64,000 bases of DNA from a bacterium (GTDB lineage: Bacteria; Patescibacteriota; Minisyncoccia; Moranbacterales; UBA2206), in the NCBI GenBank assembly GCA_030654225.1, contig JAURXY010000026.1:10448-74447 (forward strand). The letters run 5' to 3'. The notes below the pieces were generated by a model that saw only the letters and a program-made list of their open reading frames with translations, was not told the DNA's origin and searched no databases. Of the stretch, positions 6,249-15,463 are shown one piece after another. The position numbers and the translations under genes are program-made. Each line of letters begins with the position of its first letter. Position 1 is the stretch's first letter.

Positions 6249-7700
6249 CTATCTCTCCAAATCCAACACTTCATCAATCCTAATTTGCGAAACGAATTCG
6301 GGGACGTGGCTCACGAGAATCATAGCGCCTTCGAAGGAATTCAAGGCTTTGGCGATGATGGGCAGATGGCGAAAGTTGATGTGGTTGGTTGGTTCGTCTA
6401 GGATCAAAAGCCCCGGTTCTTCGAGCATAAGACGAGCAAAAGCCACCAGACCTTTTTGTCCTTCAGAAAGTGAACCGATTTTGGCGTCGATAATGGTTTT
6501 GTCGATGAGAAAACCGGAAGCCACAGAGCGCATTCGTTCTTCATCTTCATTTCGCATAACAGCAAAAAGGGAATTGCGCACGGTATCTTCAAAATTGAGA
6601 GTGGAAAAATCCTGGCGGTAATATCCCACGCGAATGCCTTCGGTAATTTTTGCGCCCTTAGCAGATCCTGTGGCGAGAGATTCAAGTAGGGTGCTTTTGC
6701 CAATGCCGTTTGGTCCGGCGAGGAGTAGATGAGTTTTTTTCTTGAGAGAAATTTTGACTTTCTTTATTTCCGGTTCATGATTTTTCATCACCGTGAGTGA
6801 AGAAATGTTTATTATCTCTCCAATTAATCCATCCTGGACTGGAATTTCAAAATCACGAATAGCTTTGTCTTCACGCCTAACATCCACTTTCGCTTCTTCC
6901 ATCTCTTCAGCTTTGTCGCGCATCTTTCGGGCCACGAGTCGCATCTTGCCACCCTTGTTAGCAAAGAAGTTGGCTTTTTCTTTATTAGCAATGATTTCTT
7001 TTTCATATTGGGCGTTTTTCATTTTTTCTTTTTCAATTCGATCGGCAATTTCCGCTACCACGACATAATAGTCGCCGAGATATTGTTCAACTTTGTGGGT
7101 GAAGATGTCGAGATAGAGCACGCCGTCGGTAAAAGAATTTAAAAAGTCCGCATCATGAGAAATCACGATGCAAGTTTTGTTGTAGCTCATCAAAAATTGC
7201 GTGAGATGTTCAATGCCGGCTTTGTCTAAATTATTCGTTGGTTCATCTAGAATCAAAAGATCCGGATCTTGAATCAACGCCGAAGCTAAAAGCAGGCGGG
7301 CTTGTTGTCCGCCGGAAAAAGATTTGACTATTTTGTCATGTGGAGCTTTCAAGTTTACAAGGTCTAGTACCTTGTCAATTTTTGGATCAAGATTATATAA
7401 TTTCTCAGTGAAACATTTAGCAAAAAATTCTTTGACAGTAAGTGTCATTTGTTCGGCCGGAATAACTTGTTTGGCATAAGCAATTTTGAGAGTGGGATTG
7501 ACATAGATGGAACCATCTTCTTCTTTCAAGGATCCTGTAATCAAATTCAAAATAGTCGATTTTCCAGCGCCATTTTGTCCCATAATAGTGATTTTAGTGC
7601 CTTGCCTGAGCGAAAAAGAAGCCTCATCGAGGATGGGTTTTTTGTGTCCGTATTCAAAAGAAACTTTGTTAAATCTAACTGCAACGTCGTCTTTGGCCAT
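6249..7700 (-). CDS. ABC-F family ATPase (translation factor-type; two ABC domains, no TMD)
   Basis: two Walker A (GQNGAGKST, GPNGIGKST), two LSGGQ-like signatures, two Walker B LILDEPTN. Confidence 0.85.
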   Translation of the reverse strand: MAKDDVAVRFNKVSFEYGHKKPILDEASFSLRQGTKITIMGQNGAGKSTILNLITGSLKEEDGSIYVNPTLKIAYAKQVIPAEQMTLTVKEFFAKCFTEKLYNLDPKIDKVLDLVNLKAPHDKIVKSFSGGQQARLLLASALIQDPDLLILDEPTNNLDKAGIEHLTQFLMSYNKTCIVISHDADFLNSFTDGVLYLDIFTHKVEQYLGDYYVVVAEIADRIEKEKMKNAQYEKEIIANKEKANFFANKGGKMRLVARKMRDKAEEMEEAKVDVRREDKAIRDFEIPVQDGLIGEIINISSLTVMKNHEPEIKKVKISLKKKTHLLLAGPNGIGKSTLLESLATGSAKGAKITEGIRVGYYRQDFSTLNFEDTVRNSLFAVMRNEDEERMRSVASGFLIDKTIIDAKIGSLSEGQKGLVAFARLMLEEPGLLILDEPTNHINFRHLPIIAKALNSFEGAMILVSHVPEFVSQIRIDEVLDLER

Positions 7701-7864
7701 AGTGTTTCGAAAAAAATTAAACTAATAAAAAAGCATTGAGTTTTCATTCTAGCGCATTTTTGAAAATTTGGGAAGAGCACTGACACTAAAAACATCCTTT
7801 TGAAATATAATTCTATTGTTGTTGTACTATATCAAGTAGTTCAGTAAGCACTAATATATCAACT

Positions 7865-8062
7865 ATGACAACTAAAGAAAATCAAAGATTAACAATCTTC
7901 ATCAACCCTTATCTGGCTAAACAAGCGAAAGCGCAAGCTATTGTTGAGGAAATAAGTCTCACTAGCCTAATAGAGAAGGCTCTGATTGAATATTTGCCCA
8001 AAGAAACAATAATTAAAAAGATCGAAATTAGTAAAAATAGAAAGGTGGTGAAAACAATATGA
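7865..8062 (+). CDS. small ribbon-helix-helix-like protein
   Basis: 65 aa; N-terminal beta-strand then two helices; 4-nt overlap (ATGA) with next gene. Confidence 0.35.
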   Translation: MTTKENQRLTIFINPYLAKQAKAQAIVEEISLTSLIEKALIEYLPKETIIKKIEISKNRKVVKTI

Positions 8063-8460
8063 CAGAAATTATAAAAGAAACTACAACTGCGAAAGAAGAT
8101 GGCAAAACTCCAGTTGCAGTGACTTCAATCGAAAGCGAAGCGACTGGTTTTCAGACGATTGAATATTTAGTTTATTTCTTTGCCGGACTTTTGGAAATAC
8201 TCTTAGTTTTTCGTCTCGTGCTCAAATTGATGGGAGCTAGCCTCGCAAGTTCATTTGTAGGATTGATTTATGGGATAACAGGAATTTTCATCACTCCCTT
8301 TGAAGGAATATTCCGCAGAGGCTTTGCTCAAGGAGTGGAAACAACTTCAGTTTTGGAGCCATCAACGCTCGTGGCAATTATCGTGTATGCTGTTTTAGCT
8401 TGGGGAATCGTCAAATTAGTACGAATATTCTCGGGCGAAAAACAAAAATCTAGTATGTAA
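8059..8460 (+). CDS. YggT-family membrane protein
   Basis: YGGT-like TM pattern (LLEILLVFRLVLKLM). Confidence 0.5.
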   Translation: MTEIIKETTTAKEDGKTPVAVTSIESEATGFQTIEYLVYFFAGLLEILLVFRLVLKLMGASLASSFVGLIYGITGIFITPFEGIFRRGFAQGVETTSVLEPSTLVAIIVYAVLAWGIVKLVRIFSGEKQKSSM

Positions 8461-8477
8461 TTAAATTTTCAAAAAAT

Positions 8478-8624
8478 ATGTGGACAATAATTATAATCCT
8501 GGTAATCCTATGGTTTCTGGGATTCATCACCTCGTATACTCTTGGTGGACTGCTTCACATCCTACTTGTAATTGCTGTTATTTTAGTTATAATAAGATTA
8601 CTACAAGGTCGAAACATTATTTAA
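8478..8624 (+). CDS. lmo0937-family small membrane protein (48 aa; absent from ORF track)
   Basis: MWTIIIILVILWFLGFITSYTLGGLLHILLVIAVILVIIRLLQGRNII matches the lmo0937/DUF5670 signature. Confidence 0.6.
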   Translation: MWTIIIILVILWFLGFITSYTLGGLLHILLVIAVILVIIRLLQGRNII

Positions 8625-8643
8625 TCTAAAATAGATATTATAT

Positions 8644-8922
8644 ATGGAAACAGTGATGAAAGCAGACATTTTCTTTTTTATCTCTTCTGTGGCGACAGTT
8701 GTGCTCTCGGTATTATTTTCTATCGGCTTGTTTTATCTTATCAAAGCCGGTAGAAATTTATATCTAATTTCAGAAAAGTTGCAAGATAATTTTGAGGATT
8801 CAAAAGAGTTTATTCTAGAACTCAAAGAAAGGTTGGAAGACAACATTATCTTTCGAATGTTTTTTCCACCAGCACGAAAAAGGAAGCGCTCAGAAACGAG
8901 AGATCAAAAAAAAGCTAATTAA
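8644..8922 (+). CDS. DUF948-like small membrane stress protein
   Basis: single N-terminal TM helix followed by a coiled-coil region. Confidence 0.4.
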   Translation: METVMKADIFFFISSVATVVLSVLFSIGLFYLIKAGRNLYLISEKLQDNFEDSKEFILELKERLEDNIIFRMFFPPARKRKRSETRDQKKAN

Positions 8923-8939
8923 TTTTTAAAATAAATATT

Positions 8940-9329
8940 ATGAAAAAGAAGACAGACAAGGTGATCAAGCTGGCAGTCATAGGCGCAAGCTTGGCTGGTG
9001 TAGCAGCGACCGCCTATTTTTTCTTCGGGCCAAAAGGGAAGAAACATCGCGATCATGCCAAATCTTGGGCGATCAAAATGAAGGGGGATGTCATTGAAAG
9101 ATTGGAGAAAGCTAAGGAAATCACTGAACCAATCTATCTTGAAATTATCGATGCAGTGTCCAAGGATTATGCCAAAGAAAAAGTGGCAACAAAAGAGGAA
9201 ATTGGAGCAATTGCTAATGATCTCAAAAAACATTGGAAATCGATAAGTAAATTGGCAATTTCTGCCAAGCAAGATGTCGCCAAAGACGCTTCTCGTGTTA
9301 TGAAAGTAGTTAAGAAAATCAAAAAATAG
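8940..9329 (+). CDS. YtxH-like general stress protein
   Basis: GASLAGVAATAYFFFGPKGKKHRD matches the YtxH motif. Confidence 0.55.
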   Translation: MKKKTDKVIKLAVIGASLAGVAATAYFFFGPKGKKHRDHAKSWAIKMKGDVIERLEKAKEITEPIYLEIIDAVSKDYAKEKVATKEEIGAIANDLKKHWKSISKLAISAKQDVAKDASRVMKVVKKIKK

Positions 9330-10312: not shown

Positions 10313-11725
10313 TTAGTATCGGTAATTTTCCGACTTATATGGACCATCAATTGGAGTGTTGATATAATTGGCTTGTTTTTTGGTGAGCTTAGTCAAAGAC
10401 ACACCAAGTTTTTCCAAATGCAAGCGGGCTACTTCTTCATCTAGTTTTTTTGGCAAAGTATAAACTCCAATGGCATGTTTATTTTCCCAAAGTTCCAGTT
10501 GCGCCAAGACTTGATTGGTGAAAGAGGTACTCATCACAAAACTTGGATGCCCCGTAGCATTGCCAAGATTGACTAGTCGACCTTGTGAAAGAAGCACAAT
10601 GGCGTGTCCGTCAGGGAAGACATATTTGTCCACTTGCGGTTTGATGTTTATTTTTTCAATTCCATTATATTTTTCCAATTTCTCAACTTGAATTTCATTG
10701 TCAAAATGTCCAATATTGCAAACAATCGCTTCATCTTTCATTTTTTCCATATGAGAAATTGTGATGATATCTTGATTGCCCGTAGCGGTCACATAAATAT
10801 TGCCTTCGCCAAGTGTTTCTTCGACAGTCTTAATTTCAAAACCTTCCATCGAAGCTTGCAAAGCGCAAATTGGATCAATTTCCGTGATGATGACTCGCGC
10901 GCCAAGACCTTTCATGCTTTGGGCGCAACCTTTGCCAACATCGCCATAGCCACAAACAACGACAACTTTTCCGGCCACCATCACATCTGTTCCGCGCTTG
11001 ATGCCATCGGCCAAACTTTCTCGACAACCATAAAGATTGTCAAATTTGCTTTTGGTCACACTGTCATTAACATTAATCGCGGGGAAGAGTAATCTCTTTT
11101 TTTCAAACATTTGATAGAGTCGATGCACGCCTGTGGTAGTTTCTTCGGAAACTCCTTTGATATCTCGAATCATCTTGCTCCAAAAATTTTTGTTTTCGCT
11201 ATAAATTTTAGAGAGAATTTTCATGAGTTCTTTTTCATCTTCAGTTTTTCCGGAATAATTTTGTTTGAGTATTTTTGGATCTTTTTCAATCTCTGCGCCA
11301 AGATGAAGCATGAGCGTGGCATCGCCTCCATCATCCACAATTAAATTTGGTCCAAGATTTTTACCAAACTTGAAAGCTTGCTCAGTACACCACCAATATT
11401 CTTCCAATGTTTCACCTTTCCAAGCAAAAACCGGAACGCCGGCTTTGGCAATGGCGGCTGCGGCGTGATCTTGAGTGGAATAGATATTACAAGAAACCCA
11501 CCGTACTTCGGCGCCCAACTCAACCAAAGTTTCAATGAGTACCGCCGTTTGAATAGTCATATGCAGACTCCCCAAAATACGCGCGCCTCGGAGAGGCTTC
11601 TTTTTGCCAAATTTTTTTCGCAGAGCCATAAGCCCCGGCATTTCTTTCTCGGCGATAATAATTTCATTGCGCCCATACTCTGCCAAGCTAATGTCTTTGA
11701 TTTTGTAATCTTGTATTTTGTCCAT
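10313..11725 (-). CDS. ahcY: adenosylhomocysteinase
   Basis: full-length SAHH; NAD-binding GYGDVGKG; start placed at [11 protein letters not shown]. Confidence 0.9.
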
Positions 11726-11768
11726 TTTCCTTGTTAAATAAGATTTGAATCTTGTGATAAGACACAAC

Positions 11769-12779: not shown

Positions 12780-13835
12780 CTATCCGAAATAATTTTCCAC
12801 CGCGAATTCGAATTGTTTGACGAAGATTTCTTTTAGAAAATAAAGACTATTTTGTTCATAAAAAAGTAGAGTCGCTTTTTTGTAGTCATTTTTATCAACA
12901 TCCCTATAAGATAGTGGGCAATATCCCTCCGCTAATAAAATAGCATTGCCTAAAATTCTAGCAGTTCTTTTGTTTCCATCTTCAAAGGGTTGAATATAGG
13001 AAATTAAGGCGATCGCAGAAAGCGCTTTTAGCAGGGGATGTATATTTTTGGCATTAATAATCGAAAGCACTTCATGCAAAGCTTCTTTTATTTGAAATTG
13101 ATTATCCAGCGGTTTGTAATTAGTTCCAGTTATCCCGACTGATGTTTTTCTGACATTTTTTTCAACTCCAAGGTCGAAGGTAAGTAGCTGGTGCAGGTCT
13201 TCGATTTTAGAAAGAGTTAATTCTTTGAAAATTTTAGGATTCTTAATAATATAGTCCAGAGCTTTTTTATGATTTAGAATCATTTGAGTTTCTGATTTTG
13301 TGTGACCGGAAGCCTCTTGATTTTCTGTTATTAGAATTTCTGTTTCTATTAAGGAATACGTGTTTCCTTCTATTTGAGATGATTTCCAACTTAATTCTAT
13401 AGTTAGTCTTTCAAACTCTTTTTTTAGAATAGTAGGGGAGAGTTTCTTTACTCTTTTCTGATAGTTGTCATTTAGTTTATCAAGATTAGCCAATTCTTCT
13501 TTTGAGAATATTGAGTTATCAAAATTTTTGAAGATATCGAAGTTGAAGTTTTTTTGAGAATTTCTCTTCTCTACAGATTGTTCAAAATATTTCTCGATAT
13601 CATAAAAAGACATCAGGGGATTCTCAATCATTACACCATAAGAAACGCTTCTTCCCCGCCCTGTTTTTTTGATTAGTTTTTTTGTTATTAAAACATCGAG
13701 ATCTCTTATGATTGTGATTCTATTCAAAGCCCCGGTTTTTAGTTCTTGGTATTCCTTAATTTCTCTGGTGCTAGCTTGCCCTTGATTTTGTATGAATTCC
13801 AGGATTGAGTTTTGACGAGTAGTTAATTTTTCCAT
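12780..13835 (-). CDS. Fic/Doc-family protein with N-terminal wHTH; catalytic His replaced by Gln (QPFEDGNKRTAR)
   Basis: Fic core motif present except H->Q; codon is CAA (plus-strand TTG at 12990-12992). Confidence 0.75.
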   Translation of the reverse strand: MEKLTTRQNSILEFIQNQGQASTREIKEYQELKTGALNRITIIRDLDVLITKKLIKKTGRGRSVSYGVMIENPLMSFYDIEKYFEQSVEKRNSQKNFNFDIFKNFDNSIFSKEELANLDKLNDNYQKRVKKLSPTILKKEFERLTIELSWKSSQIEGNTYSLIETEILITENQEASGHTKSETQMILNHKKALDYIIKNPKIFKELTLSKIEDLHQLLTFDLGVEKNVRKTSVGITGTNYKPLDNQFQIKEALHEVLSIINAKNIHPLLKALSAIALISYIQPFEDGNKRTARILGNAILLAEGYCPLSYRDVDKNDYKKATLLFYEQNSLYFLKEIFVKQFEFAVENYFG

Positions 13836-13964
13836 AAGCTTATTCTAATTGTTACATTAATTTACTCTAATTGTAACATTTTGATACAATTAATGCAACA
13901 ATTAAATTTACAAAAAAAGACGCAATTTAAATTAGGTATTCTTTACGGGCGACGCTGTGAGATG

Positions 13965-13996
13965 AAAAAAAGACTGTTTCTAAAAACAGTCTTTTT
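13965..13996. terminator. bidirectional terminator hairpin
   Basis: AAAAAAGACTGTTT-CTAA-AAACAGTCTTTTTT. Confidence 0.65.
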
Positions 13997-14010
13997 TGAA
14001 TTTTTCGCAG

Positions 14011-14082
14011 CTCCGCGACCAGGACTCGAACCTGGAACCAATTGATTAACAGTCAACTGCTCTACCATTGAGCTATCGCGGA
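14011..14082 (-). tRNA. tRNA-Asn (GTT)
   Basis: cloverleaf read from reverse complement; anticodon loop CTGTTAA; T-arm GGTTCGAGTCC; CCA not encoded. Confidence 0.85.
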
Positions 14083-14220
14083 ATAAATATTCAATTTTTA
14101 AAACAAATTGATTATAACAAGATGTTTCAGATAAATCAAGGAATGAACAATTATGAATAATTCTGGCGAGTTTTTTGTTTTTGGATTATAATTATATTAG
14201 AAATAATTTAAAAAAACAAA

Positions 14221-14961
14221 ATGGAGAAAAAAATTATAAAAGTTAGAAAAATCAACAAAACTAAAAAACCCATTATCAAAAAAGAAGCGATAAAAAAGGC
14301 GATAGGGGATATAACGGAGAAAATAAAAACGATTAGAGTCACTAATCCTTTCAAAAACATAAATATACTCCAAAAATTCAGAAAACCGAAGGTGGTGATG
14401 CGAAAAACATATCAGAAAAAAACTTGGAAAAAAGTGGCGAGTATGATTTTAGTTGCAATTATTATCCTAGCTATAATTGTCGGGATAATATTTTTGGTGA
14501 AAAAAATAAAAAACTCTCCGCGTCCATTGCCGAAAAATTCGATTAACACTAATTCGCAAGAGCCGGGCAATGTGATAGAGATAGATAATCTAGACGAAAA
14601 TTTTCCGGATAACGGAGAGATTATTTCTCAAGGGAGATTCAATAATGTCGAGCAGATTTTGAAAGGCAAAGCCCTTTTTGTCAAAAGTGGCGGGGATGTC
14701 TTTTTGCGATTAGAGGGTTTTGAAACGGTCAATGGTCAAGATATGCACATTTATCTTTCACCAATTTTGAATCTCAATCCAGAAGATGCAATTGACTTGG
14801 GAATCATGAAATCGACCACTGGAAATGTTAATTATAAAGTAGAAAAGTCAGTTGATTTGGAAAAATATTTCAATGTCTTGATTTGGTCTAACCGTTTCAA
14901 CGCTTTCTTTGGATACGCCACATTGCAAAAAGGGGAATTACTACCAGAAAATCCAATTTGA
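14221..14961 (+). CDS. DM13-domain protein with basic N-terminus and one TM helix
   Basis: C-terminal pattern (GKALFVKSGGDVFLRLEGFETVNGQDMHIYL) typical of DM13. Confidence 0.5.
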   Translation: MEKKIIKVRKINKTKKPIIKKEAIKKAIGDITEKIKTIRVTNPFKNINILQKFRKPKVVMRKTYQKKTWKKVASMILVAIIILAIIVGIIFLVKKIKNSPRPLPKNSINTNSQEPGNVIEIDNLDENFPDNGEIISQGRFNNVEQILKGKALFVKSGGDVFLRLEGFETVNGQDMHIYLSPILNLNPEDAIDLGIMKSTTGNVNYKVEKSVDLEKYFNVLIWSNRFNAFFGYATLQKGELLPENPI

Positions 14962-15133: not shown

Positions 15134-15463
15134 ATGGCACAAAAACTATATGTAGGAAATTTATCCTACAATGTGAATGATGAAGCATTGAAAGAAATGT
15201 TTTCCGCAGCGGGAACAGTATCTTCAGCAATGATCATCACCGACAGAATGTCTGGACGATCCAAAGGTTTTGGATTCGTTGAGATGAGTTCTGATGCAGA
15301 AGCAATAGCTGCAATTGACATGTTCAATGGAAAAGAAGTTGAAGGACGAGCATTGACTGTTAACGAAGCTCGACCAAAAGAAGATCGACCTCGAAGCACA
15401 GGTGGCTTTGGAGGCGGAAATGGCCGTGGCCGAGATTTCGGTGGACGAAGAGACCGATTCTAG
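15134..15463 (+). CDS. glycine-rich RNA-binding protein (RRM)
   Basis: RNP-2 LYVGNL, RNP-1 KGFGFVEM, RGG tail. Confidence 0.9.
   Translation: MAQKLYVGNLSYNVNDEALKEMFSAAGTVSSAMIITDRMSGRSKGFGFVEMSSDAEAIAAIDMFNGKEVEGRALTVNEARPKEDRPRSTGGFGGGNGRGRDFGGRRDRF

Follow-up and report, generated by a model that had tools for sequence, protein, structure and literature searches.

The catalytic His is the defining feature of Fic enzymes, and a Fic protein that lacks this residue is encoded in the 64,000-nucleotide (nt) stretch of DNA analysed here (hereafter the window), which belongs to a member of the Moranbacterales (assembly GCA_030654225.1, contig JAURXY010000026.1, positions 10,448 to 74,447). The gene, located on the reverse strand, specifies a polypeptide in which an N-terminal winged helix-turn-helix (wHTH) domain precedes a Fic domain with Gln in the place of the catalytic His. 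On balance, it probably encodes a tightly autorepressed and auto-inhibited Fic module or effector whose chemistry or binding function would be independent of His, a reading that draws on the conservation of the active site throughout a large family and on predicted operator sites over the gene's own promoter.

A class-II Fic domain with Gln in the His position

On the coding strand, the active-site loop is encoded by CAA CCC TTT GAA GAT GGA AAC AAA AGA ACT GCT AGA, which translates into QPFEDGNKRTAR, and the CAA codon is preceded on its 5' side by tcc tat att. When this loop is set against the Fic signature HxFx(D/E)GN(G/K)RxxR, Q282 falls in the His position and the residues F, D, G, N, K, R, and R are all kept, except that the second Gly of the motif is replaced by Lys (K289; GNKR). 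The domain is recognised by the Pfam profile Fic (PF02661; E = 9.5e-14, 52.5 bits versus a cut-off of 24), and in a phmmer comparison with FICD, Q282 lines up with the catalytic His of HPFIDGNGRTSR and E156 with the inhibitory Glu of TVAIEGN. The initial annotation, made from the letters of the window, had described a Fic core in which a CAA codon for Gln replaces His, preceded by an N-terminal wHTH, and had left the presence of an inhibitory alpha-inh motif to be checked. The first of these statements is borne out by the DNA, by Pfam, and by the FICD alignment, and the second by structural modelling and by matches to known structures. The inhibitory motif is indeed present (SSQIEG), aligned with that of FICD and nearly invariant in the family; since this (S/T)xxxE(G/N) helix lies N-terminal to the Fic core on the same chain, the protein belongs to class II of the Fic proteins.

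The full-length AlphaFold2 (AF2) model, for which 37 family sequences were used as input, reaches a predicted local distance difference test (pLDDT) score of 91.5 and a predicted template modelling score of 0.89. This model was used instead of a single-sequence AF2 prediction of the N-terminal 75 residues, which was poor (pLDDT 73) and was set aside. The N-terminal domain matches the winged-helix fold alpha1-beta1-alpha2-alpha3-beta2-beta3 found in BlaI/MecI, MarR, and ArsR-like repressors, and the closest solved structures of the protein are FICD/HYPE and other class-II Fic proteins, with 17–23% sequence identity. The flap that covers the active site may form a beta-hairpin, although in the model it contains only two isolated beta-bridge residues, 235 and 241 (DSSP 'E'), and no regular strand.

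The substitution is a property of the whole family. Gln occupies the His position in all 120 of the best homologues (54–90% identity, mostly from Patescibacteria), and the Lys of GNKR is likewise present in all of them. For more distant relatives, the best 150 representatives of clusters at 50% identity were taken (33–55% identity); the motif is detectable in 111 of these sequences, 109 of which begin it with Gln. An alignment of the 77 full-length representatives shows Q282, D286, N288, K289, R290, and R293 in 77/77, E156 in 76/77, and, in the flap, R229 and P242 in 77/77 and Y240 in 74/77, while the inhibitory motif is invariant among close homologues. Across these representatives, the motif segment has a mean identity of 73% and the inhibitory helix one of 66%, versus 28% for the wHTH. 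Moreover, codon usage at this position across 80 species-level loci (CAA 44, CAG 37) reveals that both Gln codons are in use across species, so that selection acts on the amino acid itself. Thus, a sequencing error or a private mutation is ruled out, and this includes the error at positions 12990-12992 which, according to the initial annotation, could have concealed a genuine His. With the nucleotide and metal ligands kept and the general-base His absent, binding of a nucleotide is to be expected, but not the canonical His-dependent AMPylation of a hydroxyl group (Ser, Thr, or Tyr).

The family comprises at least 245 clusters at 50% identity (E<=1e-30), and a scan of one genome per GTDB species confirmed at least 583 loci, distributed among Patescibacteria, Bacteroidota, Gastranaerophilales, metagenome-assembled genome (MAG) bins labelled Proteobacteria, Akkermansia, and others, some of these bin labels being possibly wrong. 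Near-identical Gln-Fic loci, including their promoters, occur under the labels '[Ruminococcus] gnavus' (L029) and 'Bacteroidaceae' (L033), both from one and the same study, and also in L077, L078, and L079, which carry very different taxon labels. Near-identical loci in distant taxa suggest either mis-binned contigs or very recent transfer and, thus, the taxonomic spread deduced from MAG labels has to be taken with caution. In another locus (L010), a canonical FICD-like Fic gene (AIEGST ... HPFDDGNGRVAR; 6589-9065) precedes the Gln-type gene by approximately 525 nt on the same strand, so that His-type and Gln-type paralogues are able to coexist side by side. Informative domain fusions were sought among the longer relatives, and none were found.

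Predicted operator half-sites at the gene's own promoter

Upstream of the start codon, a single 11-bp half-site occurs four times in the window, twice in either orientation (13846-13904). The coding-strand sequence between the terminator and the start codon is TAATTGTTGCA-t-TAATTGTATCA-aaa-TGTTACAATTA-gagtaaattaa-TGTAACAATTA-gaataagctt-ATG. Exact matches to TGWWACAATTA occur three times in the 64 kb of the window, all of them within this cluster, and matches with one mismatch elsewhere do not exceed chance level. Half-site 3 includes TGtTACAAT, a candidate extended -10 element. The same four-site layout is found in a relative whose protein is 90% identical.

This layout recurs upstream of homologues in several phyla. 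An exact 6-mer direct pair (19–24 nt apart) with an inverted copy upstream was found in 37 of 79 homologue loci versus 4 of 285 control upstream regions drawn from the same loci, and the direct pair is spaced by 22 nt in 36 of the 37. When an 8-mer with one mismatch is allowed, the architecture is found at 48/79 homologue loci versus 5/285 controls, with the 22-nt spacing in 46/48. These architecture-specific tests were adopted instead of a first repeat statistic (8-mer, one mismatch, without a spacing rule), which suffered from excessive noise in AT-rich DNA. The four sites of Bacteroidota are located at about -83, -61, -41, and -19, with spacings of 22, 20, and 22 nt, and the outer spacings of other groups amount to 12, 22, or 32 nt, each a whole number of helical turns. 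Elsewhere in the homologue loci, the cognate word is not above chance (10 observed versus 8.5 expected in 552 kb) within the reach of the scan, that is, about 8 kb on each side of every locus plus the 64 kb of the window genome.

The core of the half-site differs by lineage and is repeated within each locus. In Patescibacteria it takes the form TGATACAAT or TGTTACAAT, Gastranaerophilales and alphaproteobacterial bins have TGATACGAT, and Bacteroidota have TGAGCT or TGAGCC; three Bacteroidaceae loci show TGTCCCG, a single locus GATAGGAT, and Aromatoleum CGCGCCA. Across 80 loci, the first residues of the predicted recognition helix alpha3 track these half-site classes (SRIT, S/TKxT, SYAT, SLAT, NERT, and STPT, respectively). 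A single DNA-binding domain would require the four sites of a locus to be identical, whereas neither a promoter nor an RNA hairpin would do so. The possibility of a leader RNA element was considered and rejected: in an Rfam search of 13700-14300, a tRNA alone reaches the curated cut-off and no listed match overlaps 13846-13904, and a hairpin would explain neither the 22-nt direct repeats nor the identity of the four half-sites. Mere tandem promoters were also rejected, given that the TGAGCT, TGTCCCG, and CGCGCCA variants are not promoter-like and that inverted copies are present upstream.

The half-sites coincide in part with core promoter elements. In 23 of 26 loci of the Bacteroidota type, the proximal site runs directly into TAnnTTT(G/A), the -7 box of Bacteroidota. 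In sigma70-type loci, a -35-like hexamer is located 16–18 nt 5' of the TAC(A/G)AT of the distal direct copy in 19 of 29. The overlap of the half-sites with the promoter, the recurrence of the layout, and the co-variation with the recognition helix together indicate that the protein very probably represses its own promoter, i.e., that it is subject to negative autoregulation. The suggestion in the initial annotation that a Fic protein of this kind might act as a DNA-binding or regulatory protein, thus, gains strong comparative support from a predicted operator over its own promoter. Pairs of operator and recognition helix that vary together in this way offer a ready handle for testing the family and would amount to a naturally occurring collection of orthogonal repressors and operators.

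In FICD, CccR, and CbFic2, the Fic domains form dimers. In the proposed mechanism, the N-terminal wHTH would recognise the four half-sites as two inverted pairs phased by helical turns over the core promoter of the gene. The wHTH domains of an oligomer, probably a dimer or tetramer assembled via the Fic domains, would fill these half-sites, occlude RNA polymerase, and keep the level of the protein low. In turn, the C-terminal part would act as a class-II Fic fold provided with the nucleotide/Mg apparatus (D286, N288, R290, and R293) and with the auto-inhibitory E156, its pocket keeping the Glu that normally blocks productive binding of ATP. The logic would be that of an effector such as CccR or of a fused toxin-antitoxin module.

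A divergent sub-branch is represented on plasmid 2 of Aromatoleum aromaticum EbN1 (L081, 2440-3930) by a protein of 464 aa with the motif QPFEDVNKRVSR and an additional C-terminal extension of about 110 residues without a Pfam match. Its operator follows the same logic in a GC-rich version, with CGCGCCACATAAAA present twice, 32 nt apart, together with inverted TGGCGCG copies. The gene adjoins a partial integrase on this conjugative plasmid, and related genes with approximately 35% identity are found on about 25 proteobacterial plasmids.

Table 1. Coordinates of the gene, its encoded elements, the predicted half-sites, and upstream features in the window.
Feature	Position	Strand	Remarks
Coding sequence of the wHTH-Fic(Gln) protein, 351 aa, ATG start	12780..13835	(-)	Open reading frame list, Pfam Fic, full-length homologues (54-90% identity), AF2 model
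N-terminal wHTH, residues 1-70	13626..13835	(-)	
Predicted recognition helix alpha3, residues 39-51, NRITIIRDLDVLI	13683..13721	(-)	Third wHTH helix; first residues co-vary with the half-site, 80 loci
Inhibitory-helix motif S152-S-Q-I-E156-G157	13365..13382	(-)	Fits (S/T)xxxE(G/N); DNA reading, alignment to FICD TVAIEGN
Flap region over the active site, residues 229-245, RKTSVGITGTNYKPLDN	13101..13151	(-)	AF2 and conservation; beta-hairpin predicted
Active-site loop Q282-PFEDGNKRTA-R293, QPFEDGNKRTAR	12957..12992	(-)	DNA reading; Gln codon CAA at 12992-12990
Predicted half-site 4, TGTAACAATTA	13846..13856	(-)	Exact TGWWACAATTA match; 10 nt 5' of ATG
Predicted half-site 3, TGTTACAATTA	13868..13878	(-)	Exact match; 22 nt from site 4; holds extended -10-like TGtTACAAT, hexamer 13875-13870
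Predicted half-site 2, TGATACAATTA	13882..13892	(+)	Palindrome with site 3 across 3 bp
Predicted half-site 1, TGCAACAATTA	13894..13904	(+)	One mismatch; 12 nt from site 2
Hairpin resembling a bidirectional terminator	13966-13997		14-bp stem, A and T runs on both sides
tRNA-Asn (GTT)	14010-14082	(-)	

Genomic context and competing readings

The presence of the tRNA-Asn and of the terminator-like hairpin just upstream implies that the Fic gene starts its own transcription unit, with a promoter insulated from upstream transcription. On the coding strand, its stop codon is followed after a 6-nt gap by a gene for a pfkB-family kinase (12773-11769, reverse strand) and then by ahcY, the Fic gene being located 5' of both. 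The initial annotation had placed it directly downstream of ahcY and adenosine kinase, an order that is reversed when the direction of transcription is considered. Moreover, a functional link with these genes finds no support, since tblastn detected the pfkB kinase near 0/80 homologue loci and ahcY near 1/80, where it lies on the other strand at a distance of about 7.5 kb from the Fic gene, and in the 90%-identical relative the Fic gene is separated from PfkB-AhcY by genes for an RsgA GTPase and for a protein of 196 aa. That link was dropped and, as judged from these comparisons, the adjacency is local lineage synteny only. This removes a tempting but unsupported tie of the gene to S-adenosylhomocysteine/adenosine metabolism.

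A conserved partner, whether antitoxin, target, or immunity gene, did not emerge from all-against-all clustering of 970 flanking open reading frames (ORFs), in which no family occurs in more than six loci. Similarly, profiling of 143 immediate neighbours with Pfam and PADLOC did not reveal any enriched family, PhdYeFM being present in only two of them. Given that the operator is private to the gene within the scanned stretches and that no neighbour is conserved, the output of the module is inferred to lie in the Fic domain rather than in transcriptional control. Carriage by plasmids or phages was also considered as a habit of the family and rejected, on the basis of 26 plasmid records, 2 weak phage matches, and about 9 loci in 2.9 million viral contigs.

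Some neighbouring genes and individual loci deserve mention on their own. The mechanical start of the ahcY ORF (10313-11767) is a TTG that overlaps the pfkB stop codon, whereas the orthologue in the 90%-identical relative has 470 aa, which suggests that the true start is an ATG located 14 codons further on (~11725; MDKIQDY...). Divergent from the Fic gene, positions 14221-14961 encode a protein of 246 aa in which a hydrophobic N-terminal segment is combined with a DM13 domain (Pfam E=2.8e-13). Further on, positions 15134-15463 encode a 109-aa protein that by eye has the look of an RNA recognition motif or glycine-arginine-rich RNA-binding protein. Among the homologue loci, L034 (CALFEO010000005.1) is an exact repeat with a period of 7,807 nt (1608/1608 positions identical) and might represent a small circular element in concatenated form. 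Besides the Gln-Fic gene, it encodes a reverse transcriptase (RVT_1, E=6.7e-20), a 325-aa protein of unknown function in two copies, and a 714-aa protein with a weak, sub-threshold Pfam match to CobT_C, a family with a von Willebrand factor A domain.

Several considerations weigh against an autorepressed, auto-inhibited effector. The assignment of the operator rests on comparative genomics, the link between recognition helix and half-site is partly confounded by phylogeny, and the relation of R/K to A/G has exceptions. A distant regulon beyond the scanned flanks would favour a sensor-type transcription factor, a Fic domain without its general base may have no catalytic activity at all, and the promoter in the window may also drive metabolic genes, given the location of pfkB 6 nt after the Fic gene. 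Furthermore, the neighbours across loci are mostly housekeeping genes, which poorly fits a typical mobile toxin or defence gene, and the family is rare both on plasmids, where the records are mostly partial matches to the divergent sub-branch, and in phages and viral contigs.

A ligand-sensing transcription factor, in which the His-less Fic domain would serve as a sensor pocket for ATP, ADP, or another nucleotide that controls DNA binding by the wHTH, is possible, though doubtful. Its targets would be the gene itself together with other genes bearing the same operator elsewhere, or else the downstream gene, here pfkB-ahcY. Such a factor would agree with the comparative support for DNA binding and for the operator, with the conservation of all nucleotide-contacting residues despite the loss of the general base, and with the co-directional gene that follows the Fic gene in 41 of 74 loci, here at so short a distance; in the 90%-identical relative, the Fic gene heads a co-directional string RsgA-x-PfkB-AhcY. 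A precedent for coupled DNA binding and Fic activity is provided by CbFic2, whose activity is switched by DNA binding (PMC10628234). However, neither the window nor the homologue flanks contain extra operator copies, the downstream genes are unrelated from locus to locus, and the strictness of the Gln (never Asn, Ala, Ser, or similar) and the invariance of the flap exceed the obvious needs of a sensor. It is rather unlikely, in turn, that the Gln-type members work as enzymes by a His-independent mechanism new to the Fido superfamily, with the nucleotide state gating the binding of the wHTH to the operator. In that case, the invariant Gln and the invariant 'inhibitory' Glu might, for example, position water or an already-anionic nucleophile on a Doc-like inverted nucleotide, resulting in hydrolysis of a nucleoside triphosphate or in phosphoryl or nucleotidyl transfer to phosphate or carboxylate. 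If true, the family would represent a self-contained, horizontally spreading nucleotide switch or effector ranging from Patescibacteria to Bacteroidota, and its interest would rise considerably if Gln supports new Fic chemistry.

It is quite improbable that the gene is a single-gene anti-phage or abortive-infection module of the SoFic type, in which the wHTH and the alpha-inh helix would be the 'antitoxin' and the Fic domain a toxin released on infection. SoFic is an experimentally demonstrated defence gene that acts by AMPylation (PMC12249575; bioRxiv 10.1101/2022.05.11.491447), and its profile is the best PADLOC match of the protein (E=1.8e-19, 68 bits), followed by PDC-S04 Fic candidates, but this match is only at the level of a generic Fic domain, and the NCBIfam SoFic equivalog (NF046030) gives 21 bits versus a cut-off of 550. 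A stand-alone gene that is predicted to be autorepressed would resemble toxin-antitoxin and Abi genes, and the approximately 50% identity across Patescibacteria, Bacteroidota, Gastranaerophilales, and proteobacterial bins suggests horizontal transfer, although the labels of the MAG bins are perhaps partly wrong. Integrases, AbiEii, methyltransferases, and a reverse transcriptase are occasional neighbours, yet only a handful of the 143 flanking genes match defence profiles, the loci in viral contigs and the phage and plasmid matches are few, and the catalytic His required for toxicity of the SoFic type is absent. A dead relic or artefact, due to a sequencing error or a recent inactivating mutation, or a Fic domain reduced to the dimerisation scaffold of a DNA-binding protein, is very improbable indeed. 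Loss of the general base normally abolishes Fic activity, as in the inactive H192A variant of CccR (PMC9755527), but Gln is fixed, by way of both codons, in the members examined, and conservation is highest in the active-site loop and in the alpha-inh helix, far above that of the wHTH. The invariance of Gln, Lys, and all nucleotide and Mg ligands in these alignments argues against a decaying relic, and in a mere scaffold the ligands of Mg and phosphate would not stay invariant. The autorepressed, auto-inhibited Fic module, thus, appears on balance the probable reading. Whichever of these functions applies, a multi-phylum clade with an invariant Gln for His and the other active-site residues kept represents either a new chemistry for the fold or an enzyme fold recruited as a sensor. 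It is, moreover, abundant in Patescibacteria, whose small genomes contain few regulators and many unknown genes.

Comparison with known systems

In FICD, deAMPylation depends on the His as well, and both FICD/HYPE and the bacterial class-II Fic proteins keep the catalytic His and GNG, unlike the window protein. Nevertheless, they share with it the fold, the position of the (S/T)xxxE(G/N) helix, the flap, and the D/N/R/R ligands (SoFic, 3zcn; BT_2513, 3cuc; CbFic2, 8cil; EfFic). From SoFic, the protein differs in the location of its wHTH, which is N-terminal instead of following the order Fic_N - Fic - C-terminal wHTH, as well as in the absent His, so that it does not qualify as a SoFic protein. 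The Doc toxin of phage P1 has Lys in place of the second motif Gly (GNKR), as does the window protein. According to Castro-Roa et al. in 2013, this Lys of Doc reportedly goes with an inverted ATP and with kinase chemistry (phosphoryl transfer). However, the His is retained in Doc, which has neither flap nor alpha-inh helix nor final Arg and which Phd neutralises, whereas in the window protein R293 is present and a flap is predicted; with a DOC_P1 (TIGR01550) score of 16.3 bits versus a cut-off of 38.65, it is not a Doc protein by this profile.

Similar in its regulatory logic is CccR of Yersinia pseudotuberculosis (PDB 7xux; PMC9755527), a protein with Fic and HTH domains that represses its own promoter and AMPylates FtsZ. 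Both proteins fuse a Fic domain to a DNA-binding domain, and binding of the window protein to its own promoter would be the counterpart suggested by the co-varying half-sites. In CccR, the HTH is C-terminal, the motif is the canonical H192PFGNGNGRTVR, and the protein is secreted by a type VI secretion system, whereas the window protein has an N-terminal wHTH, Gln for His, Lys for Gly, and no secretion context, and a His-dependent AMPylation like that of CccR does not apply, as the His is absent from the sequence. Likewise, the autoregulated wHTH repressors of toxin-antitoxin and Abi systems, e.g., AbiEi (PMC7319586), resemble the predicted arrangement of a wHTH on repeated inverted half-sites over the promoter of its own stand-alone module, with negative autoregulation. 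In those systems, however, the repressor (antitoxin) and the toxin are separate proteins, whereas the DNA-binding, inhibitory, and Fic parts are here located on one chain.

The substitution itself has a precedent in the literature, in which a search for an experimental study of Gln-type Fic proteins retrieved none. Khater and Mohanty (2015; Sci Rep 5:10804; PMC4454073) grouped 45 Fic/Doc sequences from bacteria in silico into a clade, D2, with the consensus Qx[F/Y]x[D/E][G/V]NKR, which they placed in the Doc subfamily, described as 'usually single-domain' and confined to bacteria, and argued to be under selection, perhaps with another function. The motif of the window protein (QPFEDGNKR) matches this consensus, the same motif class is found in 120/120 and 77/77 of its relatives, and the divergent plasmid-borne relative of Aromatoleum, with the QPFEDVNKR version and the same N-terminal wHTH, ties the window family to the D2 consensus. 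Thus, the replacement of His by Gln is already published, and the gene is a typical member of that clade. In contrast with the published description, the family extends from 45 sequences to the numbers of clusters and species-level loci given above, and its members combine a wHTH and a Fic domain with the class-II alpha-inh helix, the flap, and the final Arg. Moreover, the structural neighbours of the family are FICD and SoFic and not Doc. The contribution of this analysis lies in a class-II architecture with two domains, in the size and taxonomic range of the family, and, as predicted from the sequences compared, in a previously unreported autoregulatory operator that co-varies with its recognition helix.

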